Shown in pieces: positions 3,422 to 34,718 of a stretch of 64,000 bases of DNA (positions are counted from its first letter, which is position 1; each line of letters opens with the position of its first letter). The translations under genes were made by a program, and so were the position numbers. The DNA lies in assembly GCF_050320075.1 (NCBI RefSeq), contig NZ_CP190021.1; one strand, given 5' to 3'. The notes under the pieces were generated by a model that did not search any database, was not told the origin of the DNA, and was given only the letters and a program-made list of their open reading frames with translations. The DNA is from Escherichia coli (lineage in GTDB: Bacteria > Pseudomonadota > Gammaproteobacteria > Enterobacterales > Enterobacteriaceae).

Positions 3422-3492
3422 CCGCCTGGCCTGTATACCGCAATCATTTACGTTATCCAGACGTAAATCCGCCGCTTGTTGCTGTCAGCATG

Positions 3493-3783: not shown

Positions 3784-4960
3784 CGTCGTGCGGAGATCAT
3801 CAGTCCGTTGGCGCAGTCGGAGACGGTCGGGCACGAAGCGGCCGATATGGCGGCTCAGGCGCTGGGCTTGTCTCGGCGCCAGGTATACGTTCTGATCCGG
3901 CGTGCCCGGCAAGGCAGCGGCCTCGTGACGGATCTGGTGCCCGGCCAGTCCGGTGGAGGTAAAGGTAAGGGGCGCTTGCCGGAACCGGTCGAGCGCGTCA
4001 TCCACGAGCTACTGCAAAAGCGGTTCCTGACCAAGCAGAAGCGCAGCCTAGCGGCCTTTCACCGCGAAGTCACTCAGGTGTGCAAGGCTCAAAAACTGCG
4101 AGTGCCGGCGCGCAATACCGTGGCCTTACGGATCGCTAGCCTTGACCCGCGCAAGGTCATCCGCCGGCGGGAAGGCCAGGATGCCGCTCGTGACCTACAA
4201 GGTGTGGGCGGCGAGCCTCCTGCCGTGACCGCGCCGCTGGAGCAGGTGCAGATAGACCATACGGTCATCGACCTGATCGTGGTCGATGACCGCGACCGGC
4301 AACCTATTGGCCGCCCGTACCTGACCCTCGCCATCGACGTGTTCACCCGCTGCGTGCTCGGCATGGTCGTCACGCTGGAAGCGCCGTCTGCCGTTTCGGT
4401 TGGCCTGTGCCTCGTGCATGTCGCCTGCGACAAGCGCCCTTGGCTGGAAGGACTGAACGTGGAAATGGATTGGCAGATGAGCGGCAAGCCCTTGCTGCTC
4501 TACCTAGACAACGCGGCCGAGTTCAAGAGCGAGGCCCTGCGCCGGGGTTGCGAGCAGCATGGCATCCGGCTGGACTATCGCCCGCTGGGACAGCCGCACT
4601 ATGGCGGCATCGTGGAACGGATCATCGGCACGGCGATGCAGATGATTCACGACGAACTGCCGGGAACGACCTTCTCCAACCCTGACCAGCGCGGCGACTA
4701 CGATTCCGAAAACAAGGCCGCCCTGACGCTGCGCGAGCTAGAGCGCTGGCTCACATTGGCGGTCGGCACCTACCACGGTTCGGTGCACAACGGCCTGCTC
4801 CAACCGCCGGCCGCGCGCTGGGCCGAGGCCGTGGCGCGTGTCGGCGTACCGGCCGTCGTCACACGCGCTACTTCGTTCCTGGTCGATTTTCTGCCGATCC
4901 TCCGGCGCACGCTGACCCGCACCGGCTTTGTCATCGACCACATCCACTACTACGCCGATG
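3781..4960 (+). pseudogene. tniA: tniA (Tn402/Tn5053-type transposase) fragment, 5' end replaced and 3' end cut by IS26
   Basis: ORF 3739-4977 matches TniA from memory from [19 protein letters not shown] onward; the last codons (GHCCK) are read from the IS26 terminal repeat. Confidence 0.7.
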
Positions 4961-17382: not shown

Positions 17383-17775
17383 ATGTACGAAGGCGAAGAA
17401 AGGAAAAAACTTTCACTCTACCTTCACCCGGAGGACTCTGCCGATTGTCTTGCACTGGCTGAAATCGAAACTGTTCCCCGGAAAAAACGGGGGGAGTTAT
17501 ATCGGCAGGCTTTGATAACCGGCCTGATAATGCATCAGCTTGATGAGCGAATTCCCGCCGTGTTAACCGCGCTATTCACCAGAGAATTGAATGCGGATGA
17601 GGTCATTAGTCAGATTGCCAGGATAACAGGCTGGAAACCCTCCTCCGGTGATTTAAAAGAGGTACTGAAGGCGTTGGGAGGGCTTCAGAGTACAGTTTCA
17701 CCAGAACACTCTCAGGATGACGGTGAACAGGCCCGTCTGAAAGCGGCTAGGGTGAAGATGCAAAACCTGATCTAA
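17383..17775 (+). CDS. stbB: ParR/StbB-like partition adaptor
   Basis: 130-aa ORF 4 bp after stbA. Confidence 0.6.
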   Translation: MYEGEERKKLSLYLHPEDSADCLALAEIETVPRKKRGELYRQALITGLIMHQLDERIPAVLTALFTRELNADEVISQIARITGWKPSSGDLKEVLKALGGLQSTVSPEHSQDDGEQARLKAARVKMQNLI

Positions 17776-21974: not shown

Positions 21975-22315
21975 AAGGACGTCGCCGCCGGCTCCGCTTT
22001 ACCCGGCCATGCAGGGCATGGCCTTGTGGTTTTTCAGTTATGTGGCCGCCGTGTCGTGTGCGGGCTGTGCCGTGCCTCCATCTTAGCCGGGCTGGCAGGG
22101 ATGCAAGGGTACGCTTCGCCGCTGCGGTCACCCGGTCCCTCCTTCCCGTCTGCCGTGATTTTCCGGTCGTTCACCCGCTCAGATTTCGCGGTCTCACCCT
22201 CCAACTCCCGCCAGCCGTGTGCGTCAGGCTGCGGCTTCCCTTGCGCCCTGTGCATCCCCACCTTATCGCCCGGCTTTTATGGAGGCACGGCACCGCCCGG
22301 TGTCGCGGAATATGT
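21975..22315. repeat. Leading-region repeat family A, copy 1 (~340 bp), candidate ssDNA promoter (Frpo/ssi-like)
   Basis: Near-identical to 28922-29265; ends immediately upstream of the KlcA-like gene. Confidence 0.65.
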
Positions 22316-22335
22316 GAACAACGGAGGAAAACATC

Positions 22336-23620: not shown

Positions 23621-24125
23621 CTTCGGCTCCCGGCTGCCTGGCGGCATCCGGTCGTCAGGCCCGACTCCGACAGGCAGCTGCTGGCGCACCCGCCAGTCTC
23701 CGCCGAACCCGCTGGCGCGGTTTCGGGCTGCCGCTACGGTCCGATGCGTGAAAACCCGGCTTGCAGCGACCGTTCCGGTCGCGCCGCCCCTGTCGCGCCG
23801 TGACCTGCGCTCCCTGCACACCTGACGGTGTGTGAGGAAACTGCGCCTGATGGCGCAGCAGTCTTCCCTCCTGCCACCACCCCTGCGGCCTGTTTCCCGC
23901 TGTGGACTTTCCGGGGGGCAGACGTAACCCCCTCCCGTTCCATCTGTCCAGGGTGAGATGCACCGGCCACAAAATTTTTAGCCATGAACCCGGCTAAAAA
24001 TTTTGCGTCCGCCCCCGGACAGCTGTCCCGTGAGGCGGTAAACGGGCCCCCATCGGAAAGGTCCACTGCGGGGAGAAACCCCTGTGAAGTGGACGGCAGG
24101 AGGAGCTTTCGCTCCTCTGAAGGGG
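23621..24125. repeat. Leading-region repeat family B, copy 1 (~505 bp), candidate ssDNA promoter upstream of ssb
   Basis: Highly similar to 29964-30465 and partly to 33013-33345; contains a 14-bp perfect hairpin CAAAATTTTTAGCC-N8-GGCTAAAAATTTTG. Confidence 0.65.
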
Positions 24126-28921: not shown

Positions 28922-29265
28922 AAGGAAGTCGCCGGCGGCTCCGCTTTTACCCGGCCATGCGGGGCATGGCCTTGTGGGGTTTCAGCTCTGTGGCCTCAGC
29001 GTCGTGTGCGGGCTGTGCCGTGCCTCCATCTTAGCCGGGCTGGCAGGGATGCAAGGGTACGCTTCGCCGCTGCGGTCACCCGGTCCCTCCTTCCCGTCTG
29101 CCGTGATTTTCCGGTCGTTCGTCCGCTCAGGTTTCGCGGCCTCACCCTGCAACTCCCGTCAGCCGTGTGCGTCAGGCTGCGGCTTCCCTTGCGCCCCTGC
29201 ATCCCCGCCTTATCGCCCGGCTTTTATGGAGGCACGGCACCGCCCGGTGTCGCAGAACATGTGAC
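28922..29265. repeat. Leading-region repeat family A, copy 2, candidate ssDNA promoter upstream of ardA
   Basis: Near-identical to 21975-22315. Confidence 0.65.
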
Positions 29266-29963: not shown

Positions 29964-30465
29964 CTTCGGCTCCCGGCTGCCTGGCGGCATCCGGTCGTCA
30001 GGCCCGACTCCGACAGGCAGCTGCTGGCGCACCCGCCAGTCTCCGCCGAACCCGCTGGCGCGGTTTCGGGCTGCCGCTACGGTCCGATGTCTGAAAAACC
30101 AGGCTTGCAGCGACCGTTCCGGTCGCGCCGCCCCTGTCGCGCCGGAAACGGCGCTCCCTGCACACCTGACGGTGTGTAAGGCCACTGCGCCTGATGGCGC
30201 AGTCAACCCTTCCGCCGCCACCCCTGCGGCCTGTTTCCCGCTGTGGACTTTCCGGGGGCTGGAGTAACCACATCCCGTTTCAGCAGTCCAGGGGAAGATA
30301 TACCGTCCACAAAATTTTTAGCCATAAACCCGGCAAAAAATTTTGCGTCCGCCCCCGGACAGCTGCCCCGTGACGTGGTGACGGACGCCCCATCGGAAAG
30401 GTCCACTGCGGGGAGAAACCCCGAAGAAGTGGACGGCAGAAGGGGCTTTCGCCCCTCCGGGGAGC
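29964..30465. repeat. Leading-region repeat family B, copy 2
   Basis: Aligned by eye to copy 1 over ~500 bp. Confidence 0.65.
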
Positions 30466-31305: not shown

Positions 31306-31369
31306 TTAACCCTTGCCGTCTGCCTGTGCAGGCGGCAGGATACGTTCAGACATCTCACCAGGAGGAACC

Positions 31370-32308
31370 GTGAGTCAGAAGAAAACCACCACGACGCCCA
31401 CGCCGCATGATGCCGCGTTCCGGTCGTTCCTGGCGAATCCCGACGTCGCCAGAGATTTTCTGGAACTGCATCTTCCGGCGGAGTACCGGCAGTTGTGCGA
31501 CCTGTCCACGCTGAAGCTGGAACCCGCCACCTTTGTTGAGCCGGACCTGCATCAGTACGCCAGCGATATCCTCTGGAGTGTGAAAACCACCGGGGGTGAA
31601 GATGGCTATGTTTATACGCTCATCGAGCACCAGAGCACCGAAAATCTGTACATGCCTTTCCGCATGTTACGTTACAGTGTGGCGGCGATGCAGAGACATC
31701 TGGAGCAGCACAAAACGTTGCCACTGGTGATTCCTGTACTGTTCTATCATGGTGAGCGCAGCCCGTACCCGTACAGCATGAACTGGCTGGACTGTTTTGA
31801 GAATCCGGCACTTGCGGCTAAAATATACACAAAGCCGTTTCCGCTGGTTGATATCACTGTCGTTGATGACAATGAAATCATGAACCATCGCCGGATGGCC
31901 GCACTGACGCTGCTGATGAAGCATATCCGCCATCGTGACATGATGGAGCTGCTGGACAAACTCCCGCAGGTCATGGTGGAAATTTCAGACGAGCAGGTGC
32001 GTGTTCTGATTCATTACATCGTTAACGCAGGGGACTCTGTATCACCGGAATTTATGCGGGCGCTGGCTGAGCGTCTGCCGCAGCATGAGGATAAACTGAT
32101 GACTATCGCAGAACGTCTTGAGCAAAAAGGTCGCCAGGAGGGCAGGATGGAAGGACGCATGGAAGGACGCATGGAAGGACGCATGGAAGGAGCGCTTGAA
32201 AAAGCCCTGGCTATTGCGTGCCAGCTTCAGAAAATGGGGATGACGCCGGAGCAGATTAAGCAGGCTACCGGACTTTCCGATGACGAACTGAAGAAAATCA
32301 CTCACTGA
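31370..32308 (+). CDS. Rpn (YhgA-like) family PD-(D/E)xK nuclease/recombination-promoting protein
   Basis: GTG at 31370 with GGAGG RBS; N-terminal TPHDAAFRSFL, core YVYTLIEHQSTEN...FRMLRYSVAAMQRHL, recognised from memory as the YhgA/Rpn family. Confidence 0.75.
   Translation: MSQKKTTTTPTPHDAAFRSFLANPDVARDFLELHLPAEYRQLCDLSTLKLEPATFVEPDLHQYASDILWSVKTTGGEDGYVYTLIEHQSTENLYMPFRMLRYSVAAMQRHLEQHKTLPLVIPVLFYHGERSPYPYSMNWLDCFENPALAAKIYTKPFPLVDITVVDDNEIMNHRRMAALTLLMKHIRHRDMMELLDKLPQVMVEISDEQVRVLIHYIVNAGDSVSPEFMRALAERLPQHEDKLMTIAERLEQKGRQEGRMEGRMEGRMEGRMEGALEKALAIACQLQKMGMTPEQIKQATGLSDDELKKITH
32141..32188. repeat. In-frame 12-bp tandem repeat (GGACGCATGGAA x ~4) encoding (EGRM)n inside the Rpn-like gene
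   Basis: Read directly from sequence. Confidence 0.9.
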
Positions 32309-32314
32309 GTAAAC

Positions 32315-32345
32315 ATCACAGCCCGGCAAAATGCCGGGCTTTTTT
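32315..32345 (+). terminator. Rho-independent terminator after the Rpn-like gene
   Basis: AGCCCGGCA-AAA-TGCCGGGCT stem followed by TTTTTT. Confidence 0.7.
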
Positions 32346-32369
32346 GTCAGCAGGAGCAGAGCAAATAGC

Positions 32370-32528
32370 ATGACGATTGCAGAACGTCTTATTCAAAAAG
32401 GCGCACTTGAAGTGGCGCGGGAAATAGCCTGCCGGCTGCGGGATATGGGCTGGACGCCGGAACGGATTCAGGAGGCAACCGGACTTTCCGGTGAAGAACT
32501 GAAAAAGCTGTTTCCTGATGAGCAGTAG
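32370..32528 (+). CDS. Small protein duplicating the C-terminal module of the Rpn-like protein (RpnS-like candidate)
   Basis: 52-aa ORF MTIAERLIQKGALEVAREIACRLRDMGWTPERIQEATGLSGEELKKLF..., parallel to the Rpn tail MTIAERLEQKG...ALAIACQLQKMGMTPEQIKQATGLSDDELKK. Confidence 0.55.
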   Translation: MTIAERLIQKGALEVAREIACRLRDMGWTPERIQEATGLSGEELKKLFPDEQ

Positions 32529-32558: not shown

Positions 32559-32810
32559 TCACACATCCTCTGCCGTTTCCCCCAGTTCATTTTCCAGTCG
32601 CCTGATGATATCTGCCTTACGCATCCCCTGCATGTGAGGCAGCAGGTCACGGACTGAAAGTGCCTGGGTGGTCCTCCAGACGGTGACGTCCACCTGTTCC
32701 GCATTTTCCCAGGCGTGCCATGTTCTCTGCGTCACGCCAAATTCTCTGGCCGCTTTTTCGCGTGACCAGAGCATGCTTTTTCGCCAGATTCGCAGTTCCC
32801 AGCCGGTCAT
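32559..32810 (-). CDS. Small HTH DNA-binding protein (Cro/Xre-like)
   Basis: 83-aa ORF with EFGVTQRTWHAWENA HTH-like segment; twin palindromes in its 5' region. Confidence 0.6.
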   Translation of the reverse strand: MTGWELRIWRKSMLWSREKAAREFGVTQRTWHAWENAEQVDVTVWRTTQALSVRDLLPHMQGMRKADIIRRLENELGETAEDV

Positions 32811-32824
32811 AAAACACCTTTGAA

Positions 32825-32912
32825 AAAGTGAAAAAACTTCACTTTATTTTATCATCACAATTGCCAAATCAGCGCGATAAATAAGTGTAAAAAAGTGAAG
32901 AAATTTCACTTT
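32825..32912. promoter_or_regulatory. Two palindromic operator candidates AAAGTGAA-N5-TTCACTTT (32825-32845 and 32892-32912)
   Basis: Identical 8-bp arms in both copies, 67 bp apart, read from sequence. Confidence 0.6.
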
Positions 32913-33012
32913 TTTTGCTTGTAAATGTCGTGCGGTTTTCTCTGTTTTCACCTGTGCGGGAGTGGTGTGCCAGTGACCACCACATGCCATTGTTGTGCCG
33001 TCGTTTTTCTTC

Positions 33013-33345
33013 AGTCGCGCCGTATGCGGCGCTCCCTGCACACCTTACGGTGTGTAAGGCCACTGCGCCTGATGGCGCAGCTGTCTCTGCCTGTCTGCCG
33101 CCGCACTGCGGCCTGTTCTCCGCAGACGGACTTTCCGGGGGTACATACATGACCACATCCCGTTTCAGTCGTCCAGGGGGGAGATGTACCAGCCACAAAA
33201 CTTTTTGCCGCAGGCGTCAAAAACTTTTGCGTCTGCCCCCGGACAACTGCCCCGTGACGTGGTGAGCGTCCCCCGTCGGAAAGGTCCACTGCGGGGAAAT
33301 CCCCGAAGACCCGGACGGCAGAAGGAGCTTCGCTCCTCCGGGAAA
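33013..33345. repeat. Leading-region repeat family B, copy 3 (partial, 3' two-thirds)
   Basis: Aligns to 23792-24125 of copy 1, including a degenerate version of the hairpin. Confidence 0.6.
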
Positions 33346-33389
33346 TGACCTGGCTGTCCCGGCAGTCGTGACGATGAGGAGACAATGTG

Positions 33390-34238
33390 ATGAATCAGAC
33401 TTTACCCACTGCTGACCTGAATACTGCCGGCACGACAGATGTTATTCCGTCTGTGGCTATCGACCGCATCATCGCGCAGCGTAACGAAGGTATTGCACTG
33501 TTCATGCAGGCGATGGAATGCCTGGCGACAGCGCGCAAGATTCTGCTCGATGCGTCAGGTGATATTTTTCTTTACGGGTTTGAAGACTGCGTGACTGATT
33601 CCGTTCGTCGCATAGATAAACCGGAAGAAGCGAAAAGGAATATCACCCGTCTTGCCGACCGGAAAATCTGGGACCGCCTGATGACAGATACGGGCATGTA
33701 CACCTTCATGAGTTCATGCCAGCGTGATGAGTGGAACAGCCAGCTGATGAGCGACACCTGTCCTGAAATCACCCTGGACAATGTACTGGCAACATTCCGC
33801 CATCTGAATGCCTGCAAGATGCAGACATTTGAACAGGGACTGATTGATGTCTACCGGAAATTGTCATGGGATTACAGAACCAATAATCCCTGCCGTCTGG
33901 GTAAGAAAATCATTATTGAAAACCTGCTGTACCGCTGGAGTAACGGGCGTGTGACGCTGGACTGCAGCGGACGGGAGGCACTGGATGACCTGGTACGTCC
34001 GTTTTATCTGCTGGAGGGGCGCAACGTTCCTGACTTCAGGAACAGTATCGGGGCGCAGTATGGTGAATTTCTCGGGAACGGCGACAATGTCGGTAAGCTG
34101 TTAGAAGGGGAATATTTTACGGTGCGTGGCTACCAGAAAGGGACCGTACACATTGTCTTTAAGCGTTCTGACCTTGTTGAAAAACTGAATGATATTATTG
34201 CACGGCATTATCCAGGTGCATTGCCGCCACGAGTCTGA
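33390..34238 (+). CDS. Hypothetical protein, last leading-region gene before oriT
   Basis: ATG at 33390 with GAGGAG RBS (track ORF 33387-34238 starts at a GTG one codon earlier). Confidence 0.6.
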   Translation: MNQTLPTADLNTAGTTDVIPSVAIDRIIAQRNEGIALFMQAMECLATARKILLDASGDIFLYGFEDCVTDSVRRIDKPEEAKRNITRLADRKIWDRLMTDTGMYTFMSSCQRDEWNSQLMSDTCPEITLDNVLATFRHLNACKMQTFEQGLIDVYRKLSWDYRTNNPCRLGKKIIIENLLYRWSNGRVTLDCSGREALDDLVRPFYLLEGRNVPDFRNSIGAQYGEFLGNGDNVGKLLEGEYFTVRGYQKGTVHIVFKRSDLVEKLNDIIARHYPGALPPRV

Positions 34239-34323: not shown

Positions 34324-34665
34324 TCAATTGTTGTTCATATCGATGCCATCTTTCCTGCCTGAATCTGTCTTTTTAGGTGCTGTTTTAGAGGAAGAACGGC
34401 GGGATGGTTTTTTCGATTCTGCTTCCCGAATAATGTCACGAAGTGCCTTCTCTCCTACTTCATACCCTGCATTTTTGAGCGTGTCACGAACATCTGCCAG
34501 TGTATAACCCTTTGTCCTTACCAGGACAATAATGTCATCACGAATGGCATCAAGAAAATCACGCAATGTTTTCCGTTGAGCGGTGAGATCTGGCAATTCC
34601 GATAAAGCAGCTTTTGCCAGCTGGATGTCATCATCTGAGTAAAATTTTTTAGAAGCCATTGGCAC
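34324..34665 (-). CDS. Hypothetical protein with basic C-terminal tail, divergent from nikA next to oriT
   Basis: 113-aa ORF ending ...KKPSRRSSSKTAPKKTDSGRK... Confidence 0.5.
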   Translation of the reverse strand: MPMASKKFYSDDDIQLAKAALSELPDLTAQRKTLRDFLDAIRDDIIVLVRTKGYTLADVRDTLKNAGYEVGEKALRDIIREAESKKPSRRSSSKTAPKKTDSGRKDGIDMNNN

Positions 34666-34718
34666 TTTCTCTCCGTTTCATGTTGAAGTCTGATTTTATC
34701 ATCAAAAACTGACTCCTG

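Follow-up and report, generated by a model that had tools for sequence, protein, structure and literature searches.

The DNA analysed here, a stretch of 64 kb to which we refer as the window, represents the leading region of a plasmid of the IncI1 type. Many IncI1, I-gamma and K plasmids of Escherichia, Salmonella, Shigella and Klebsiella are 100% identical to it in this region, which is matched by 2,049 PLSDB records. In the IncI1 plasmid pND11_107 the order of genes is ssb, a parB-like gene, psiB, psiA, ardA, two small genes, an Rpn gene and a small ORF, followed by a helix-turn-helix (HTH) gene on the opposite strand, a DUF4942 gene, a small gene labelled 'MobC' by PGAP, and nikA-nikB. In R64-style records the HTH gene is named ygeA, the DUF4942 gene ygfB and the 'MobC' gene yggA. 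The origin of transfer (oriT) lies between yggA and nikA, near position 34700, and the leading region extends leftward from it. Because the leading genes all lie on the plus strand, the transferred strand is the minus strand (PMC12672017, PMC10104558, and standard conjugation geometry). ygeA runs in the sense of the transferred strand, so that the complementary strand would have to serve as its template.

IncI1/K/Z plasmids and their MOBP relatives are major vehicles of resistance genes, including those for ESBL, and their leading region is under active study for its single-strand promoters and anti-defence genes. Within this region ygeA is the exception to the orientation of its neighbours, and has no published function. 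A literature search found no paper on the IncI1 ygeA product; the gene called 'ygeA' in the literature is a separate F-plasmid gene, ORF95, which lies downstream of Frpo1 and is driven by it.

An earlier reading of this DNA, made from the sequence only, had placed the HTH gene between an Rpn-like module and a 'partial B3 repeat', and this is the arrangement that we find. On one side is the Rpn gene (31313–32308, plus strand, from the ORF list and annotation). On the other is the third copy of an ssi-type repeat, the first two copies of which are at 23621–24117 and 29964–30457; the third is partial and aligns at 32973–33274. The minus (transferred) strand from 32913 to 33390 is predicted to fold with an energy of -119.5 kcal/mol (z = -7.2). 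From its repeat, its fold and its position upstream of ygfB (33387–34238, plus strand, ORF and annotation), the third copy is a Frpo/ssi-type single-strand promoter, ssi1, the element of this type nearest to oriT. It occupies approximately 32950–33380 on the plus strand and drives ygfB, the divergent neighbour of ygeA; the identity of the element is taken from PMC12672017 and PMC10104558. Two other repeats of about 320 bp (21998–22317 and 28946–29264) are 94–96% identical to each other, and the second lies shortly before ardA. Their locations agree with those of the 'class 2' single-strand promoters that have been described in pESBL in front of klcA and ardA (PMC12672017), the Frpo/ssi copies being class 1.

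The Rpn gene contains, at about 32130–32190 (plus strand), a short run of 12-nt DNA repeats that specify the peptide (MEGR)x4-5 in tandem, and the length of this repeat could be variable. Directly after the Rpn stop codon is a strong, bidirectional-looking terminator hairpin (32320–32340; AGCCCGGCAAAATGCCGGGCT followed by a T-run), which parts the ssi2-driven operon from a 65-aa ORF at 32331–32528 (plus strand) and the convergent ygeA. This ORF is a free-standing duplicate of the Rpn C-terminal tail, lacking the MEGR repeat. It is 49% identical to the Rpn protein (BLASTP, E = 3e-15), and the DNA segments concerned, 32187–32295 and 32398–32506, are 75% identical. It gives weak matches to Rpn HMMs, is absent from the Salmonella variant (L018), and could either encode a small RpnS-like protein that stands alone or be left over from a duplication. 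A second 65-aa ORF, at 32844–33041 on the minus strand (PGAP WP_001161115.1), overlies ssi1 and the distal palindrome described below, and reaches up to the predicted ygeA -10 element. No such ORF is called in the Salmonella variant, and we consider it probably spurious.

The ygeA product and its homologues

The ygeA gene (32559–32810, minus strand) is an ORF of 83 codons, annotated in identical plasmids as a helix-turn-helix transcriptional regulator, and is predicted to encode a repressor of the XRE type. R64-style annotation uses a later start that gives 71 aa. We favour the 83-aa start because the N-terminal sequence MTG[WYF]EL..WR that it supplies is conserved across the family. The window protein matches Pfam HTH_31 (E = 1.2e-4) and, more weakly, HTH_3 (E = 0.022); among 25 family members 17 match HTH_31 and 16 match HTH_3 at E ≤ 1e-3.

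An AlphaFold2 model built with a 94-sequence alignment has a pLDDT of 91.8 and is all-helical, with five helices (residues 3–12, 17–24, 28–35, 42–60 and 65–76). This is the five-helix XRE fold, in which helices 2 and 3 form the HTH. The best Foldseek matches to the model are HipB, SinR, NHTF, C-proteins and Aca2, with weak E-values of 0.3–1, as expected for so small a domain. Of these, HipB, SinR, the C-proteins and Aca2 are all palindrome-binding repressors.

The YgeA family corresponds to phrog_6962, a PHROG entry to which no function is assigned (window protein, E = 1.8e-13; four homologues, 5.5e-24 to 7.7e-18). Searches of NCBIfam and PADLOC returned nothing specific for YgeA. A family profile recovered 417 clusters at 90% identity, nearly all from Enterobacterales and nearly all bearing no name beyond 'XRE family transcriptional regulator' or 'YgeA'. 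By tblastn, a homologue is encoded on 3,699 of 72,556 PLSDB plasmids, 3,222 of which are conjugative. YgeA is probably a new, uncharacterised member of the well-known XRE kind of autorepressor.

Two palindromes upstream of ygeA

The sequence-only reading had drawn attention to twin palindromes with identical 8-bp arms and a 5-bp centre, 67 bp apart, at the 5′ end of the HTH gene, and exact searches reproduced them. The window was searched with the pattern AAAGTGAANNNNNTTCACTTT. Exactly two copies of AAAGTGAA-N5-TTCACTTT are present, both directly upstream of the minus-strand ORF 32559–32810 and neither assigned to a strand. The proximal putative operator, AAAGTGAAAAAACTTCACTTT, is at 32825–32845, and its centre is 25 bp before the ygeA ATG. 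The distal putative operator, AAAGTGAAGAAATTTCACTTT, is at 32892–32912, 67 bp from the proximal one measured start to start, and its perfect arms reach 11 bp (32889–32915; AAAAAAGTGAA/TTCACTTTTTT). No third match was found across the 64-kb window when up to two mismatches were allowed. In 100 dinucleotide shuffles of the window the mean number of matches was 0.03, and no shuffle contained two.

Homologous loci, at which the sequence-only reading required the palindromes to recur, were collected from PLSDB, GTDB genomes and public assemblies. In 21 loci encoding proteins 31–83% identical to the window YgeA, we scored the core AAGTG-N9-CACTT, with at most one mismatch, in the 100 bp that precede the start codon. 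The core was present in 16 of the 21, as two copies in 11 and as a single copy in five. In 13 of the 16 the proximal core had its centre 24 to 27 bp from the ATG on the upstream side; in the remaining three it was at -36, -42 and -55. When 102 kb of sequence from 16 loci was searched with the same tolerance, all 27 hits were at the position upstream of the start codon and none was elsewhere. A separate peptide-pattern scan of genome contigs for homologues yielded only seven loci.

The inner bases of the half-site vary by clade, and the palindromic form is retained. In the IncI1 clade the half-site is AAAGTGAA or AAAGTGTA (inner bases GAA or GTA); in plasmids of Enterobacter, Salmonella, Citrobacter and Pectobacterium it is AAGTGCA(G/A) (inner bases GCA); in locus L009 it is AAAGTGTCA (inner GTCA); and loci from Klebsiella (L005) and Serratia (L015) have arms of the type ATGTGCAG. 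Imperfect sites are tolerated, as in L018, where AAAGTGAA is paired with AAAGTGTA. Among eight IncI/K/Z variants, whose sequences are not independent, 1 of 33 arm columns varied compared with 23 of 61 columns of flanking non-coding DNA (Fisher p = 1.3e-4). The single varying arm column is an indel artefact in the adjoining T-run.

The module is found beside genes for DUF4942, DUF5983, DUF932 and DUF1281, beside psiA and umuDC, and beside toxin-antitoxin genes. Taken together, these results are a clear phylogenetic footprint that belongs to ygeA and not to the genes around it. This bears on whether another protein, either a host factor or a different plasmid regulator, might bind the palindromes, with YgeA a mere neighbour. 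We consider that very unlikely. The motif accompanies the gene into varied plasmids and surroundings, always at a set distance from the start codon; it is found nowhere else in those loci or in the IncI1 plasmid, and its inner bases differ between clades of the YgeA protein. In favour of another binder, similar AT-rich palindromes are also present in viral contigs that are unrelated and encode no YgeA homologue. A scan of viral contigs for the exact operator found 61 loci, two of which are IncI1 fragments. The remainder encode no YgeA homologue and mostly have single sites, the exceptions being the IMG/VR loci L051 (6986–7133) and L077 (1543–1622), which have two or three copies of AAAGTGAAA-N3-TTTCACTTT. 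These repeats are presumably the operator of another regulator. As the arm occurs there without YgeA, the arm sequence alone is not diagnostic.

Another family member lacks these operators. In L002, a pOXA-48-like IncL plasmid, the homologue (4001–4249) has no AAGTG-N9-CACTT sites. It is one of the genes of an operon and overlaps another whose annotation is 'restriction endonuclease'. Upstream of that operon, at 3452–3473, there is one 22-bp palindrome, AAATGTTCA-AATA-TGAACATTT. This arrangement is more like that of a C-protein or controller.

The palindromes might also function as nucleic-acid hairpins rather than as protein sites, either by folding in the transferred single strand within the promoter or priming signal of ssi1, or by weakly terminating transcription in both directions, or insulating, between the operons of ssi2 and ssi1. 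Both palindromes fold in the minus strand, where a 120-nt region has z = -2.5, they are flanked by A-runs and T-runs, and they are positioned at the edge of ssi1. Against this, the stems are AT-rich and were not called by a terminator scan. The palindromes end at 32912 and lie outside the repeated ssi unit, the copies of which align from 32973; nor are they included in the strongly folding segment, and we rejected the idea that they are part of the class 1 Frpo/ssi promoter on these grounds. What is conserved is the specific sequence AAGTG...CACTT and not the mere ability to pair, and imperfect half-sites such as those of L018 are tolerated. The position of the palindromes is fixed with respect to the HTH start codon and not to any ssi element. 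A search of the region against Rfam found no RNA family. A role as hairpins therefore seems extremely improbable.

Predicted promoter and probable autoregulation of ygeA

Read along the minus strand, the distal operator (32912–32892) is followed by a variable spacer of 37 nt, a predicted extended -10 element, TGaTAAAAT (32854–32846; hexamer TAAAAT, 32851–32846), the proximal operator (32845–32825), and a Shine-Dalgarno-like AAGGTG (32820–32815) that ends 4 nt before the ATG at 32810. The -10 and the Shine-Dalgarno-like element were identified by inspection of the sequence. All nine columns of the -10 element (TGATAAAAT) are invariant across the variants, including the Salmonella locus of 83% identity, in which the spacer between the operators is otherwise rewritten. 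The Shine-Dalgarno-like element is near-invariant in IncI/K/Z variants, where 1 of 14 leader and ribosome-binding-site columns varies. A TAAAAT-like hexamer abuts the proximal core in all 11 loci with twin sites, and is TAATAT in Pectobacterium. No convincing -35 element was found for ygeA, and a scan for consensus promoters called none for this gene on the minus strand. An extended -10 element would make a -35 dispensable.

The conserved palindromes in front of the gene suggest that YgeA binds them sequence-specifically as a dimer. We propose that YgeA is probably a negative autoregulator that acts through the two palindromic operators at its own promoter. A YgeA dimer would bind each of the two 21-bp palindromes, which share the family core AAGTG-N9-CACTT, and so repress ygeA. 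The proximal operator begins immediately after the predicted -10, and a transcription start about 7 nt beyond the -10 would fall inside it. A bound dimer could then either exclude RNA polymerase or block formation of the open complex. The distal operator is 67 bp farther upstream, a distance of roughly six helical turns of 11.1 bp, and would probably raise occupancy through cooperative contacts or by forming a small DNA loop. We take the whole to be a real, conserved cis-regulatory module in which the proximal operator would be essential and the distal one auxiliary.

Cooperative autorepression had been suggested by the sequence-only reading. The autorepression part is strongly supported by the phylogenetic footprint, and the cooperative part is only suggested by the operator spacings. 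A second site is present in 11 of the 21 homologous loci, 45–67 bp from the proximal one. The distances in six lineages are 45, 54, 56, 56, 57 and 67 bp, five of which depart by no more than 2 bp from 4, 5 or 6 helical turns at about 11.1 bp each; the 54-bp spacing is within 2 bp of a multiple of 11. The distal operator is not fixed relative to the -35 region, its centre being at about -63 from the predicted start in the window, about -52 in the lineages with 56- or 57-bp spacing and about -41 in Pectobacterium, and its distance from the proximal site is stepped. These stepped spacings, from six lineages, are a weak hint of cooperativity on one face of the helix. A strict looping geometry does not appear to be required, as five loci have a single site and the spacing differs by ±1 bp among close variants.

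The orientation of ygeA suggests when it could be expressed. In the window and in eight homologous plasmid loci (L003, L004, L017, L018 and L024–L027), the YgeA-family gene is the sole gene on its strand, and is antiparallel to genes that include psiA/psiB and those for antirestriction proteins, an N6 methylase, DUF5983, DUF932 and hok. In all nine plasmids it is thus antiparallel to its leading-region neighbours, and it would therefore be expressed only after synthesis of the complementary strand. The module would therefore set a low, self-limited level of YgeA in the established double-stranded plasmid.

It had also been suggested that the HTH protein might gate the expression of neighbouring genes, and a search for further sites on the plasmid had been proposed. 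In the complete 107-kb pND11_107 no other AAAGTGAA-N5-TTCACTTT site was found with up to two mismatches. A site with three mismatches at 17399 and a match to the core at 2693 are both inside coding sequence and have unrelated inner bases, and were treated as chance occurrences. The lack of further sites here and in the 102 kb of homologous loci, together with poor conservation of the divergent promoter-like match described next, argues against gating of neighbours by YgeA.

A more limited form of control would be bidirectional, with the same operators also repressing rightward transcription of double-stranded DNA into ssi1 and ygfB. On this view YgeA would silence the adjacent operon of the leading region after conversion of the plasmid to double-stranded form, a role compatible with autoregulation. 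The operators do lie between divergent genes, a promoter-like sequence on the plus strand (GTGAAA-16-TATCAT, 32828–32855) overlaps the proximal operator, and at many homologous loci the HTH gene adjoins a long, GC-rich, structured intergenic region in front of a divergent leading-region gene. However, this is the only promoter-like match on the plus strand that faces the neighbour. In three of eight close variants its -10 is changed to TATCAC, with loss of the critical last T, and it is absent from distant homologues. The divergent gene differs from plasmid to plasmid (DUF4942, DUF5983, DUF932 or DUF1281), and at L017 the module has no neighbour of this kind. Single-strand promoters are, moreover, reported to switch off on conversion to double-stranded DNA without the need for any repressor (PMC12672017). 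Bidirectional control consequently appears unlikely to us.

Known regulators compared with YgeA

By analogy, the YgeA module would work like those of XRE-class autorepressors such as Aca proteins, C-proteins and HipB-type antitoxins. The closest solved relative of YgeA by sequence is Aca2, the anti-CRISPR-associated autorepressor of phage ZF40 and its relatives (PDB 7ezy and 7vjo). The match to 7ezy, over residues 1–70, has E = 7e-5 using a profile of five sequences and 1.6e-4 using one of 94 sequences. The match includes the N-terminal motif MT.YEL, and Foldseek gives 31% identity over 65 columns. Aca2 is, as we propose for YgeA, a small HTH autorepressor with two similar inverted repeats at its own promoter (PMC6765145). 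The two differ in several respects. Aca2 proteins are 116–125 aa long with a C-terminal dimerisation domain, whereas the 83-aa, all-helical YgeA lacks this domain and its alignment to 7ezy (125 aa) covers only residues 1–70. The Aca2 operator is TTCG-N6/8-CGAA (PMC6765145), unlike the YgeA core AAGTG-N9-CACTT. No acr gene lies upstream in the ygeA operon; the promoter and operators directly precede ygeA, and there is no co-directional gene on either side. The Pfam family Aca2_YdiL (PF08965) gave no match to the window YgeA, and only 1 of 25 family members reached E ≤ 0.1. Membership of the Aca2/YdiL family, raised by the PDB profile match, was rejected on these four counts: Pfam, dimerisation domain, operon context and operator sequence.

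The C proteins of restriction-modification systems (C.AhdI, C.Esp1396I and C.BclI), which appear among the fold matches, are XRE-type dimers of about 80 aa that autoregulate cooperatively through two palindromic operators at their own promoter. Their C-boxes are adjacent, whereas 67 bp separate the two putative operators of YgeA. ygeA shares no transcript with a restriction or modification gene, its neighbours being the Rpn-tail ORF and the DUF4942 gene, both on the opposite strand. A gene with a restriction-endonuclease annotation adjoins only the pOXA-48 homologue, which is without these operators. In the absence of partner genes, we rejected ygeA as a restriction-modification controller.

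XRE antitoxins of the HipB, HigA and MqsA types also autorepress through several palindromic operators, and HipB is among the top structural matches to YgeA. They differ from ygeA, which has no co-directional partner gene. A 57-aa ORF overlapping the end of ygeA at its stop codon runs antisense to the Rpn-tail ORF, in a segment that is entirely missing from the Salmonella variant. With no toxin operon, no conserved co-directional partner and nothing specific from PADLOC or NCBIfam, ygeA was also rejected as a type II antitoxin.

A functional parallel is offered by leading-region-linked repressors that limit expression after establishment, such as ArdK of IncN and IncW plasmids, KorA/KorB of IncP plasmids and Reg_p576 of the Bacillus plasmid p576. 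All of these control several establishment operons through operators that precede them. YgeA differs from the establishment repressors in having sites only at its own promoter, and has no sequence relationship to them. Repressors of plasmid establishment regions are described in PMC8708921 and PMC6289460, and Reg_p576 is a ribbon-helix-helix protein (PMC8708921).

It would be biologically incomplete for a repressor to have no detectable target but itself, and some further function must therefore exist. One possibility, which we consider unlikely, is that YgeA-type regulators constitute a conversion-dependent late switch of leading regions, acting in trans to end or reshape establishment. YgeA would be made only after complementary-strand synthesis, and the operators at its own gene would serve merely as its homeostat. 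The targets could be host genes, co-resident or incoming related plasmids, or degenerate sites. Such a switch would resemble the action of Aca proteins, which curb the early anti-CRISPR burst of phages. There is room for a trans-acting role of this kind, since the gene is antiparallel to its neighbours in nine diverged plasmids and the analysis detected no target besides ygeA itself.

Taken by itself, an XRE protein that represses its own gene through two palindromic operators is textbook biology. The defined operator AAGTG-N9-CACTT, the predicted promoter and the proposed autoregulation of ygeA nevertheless offer a handle on whether these leading regions have a regulator that acts at the double-stranded stage.

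A gene at the other side of ygfB also encodes a regulator. yggA (34324–34665, minus strand), which specifies the 113-aa protein called 'MobC' by PGAP, is the IncI1 homologue of orf35 of pCTX-M3, deletion of which raises nikA, nikB and traH transcripts 23- to 80-fold (PMC6112013). As the homologue of Orf35, the yggA product is thus a second and better-supported regulator, encoded two genes from ygeA and next to oriT.
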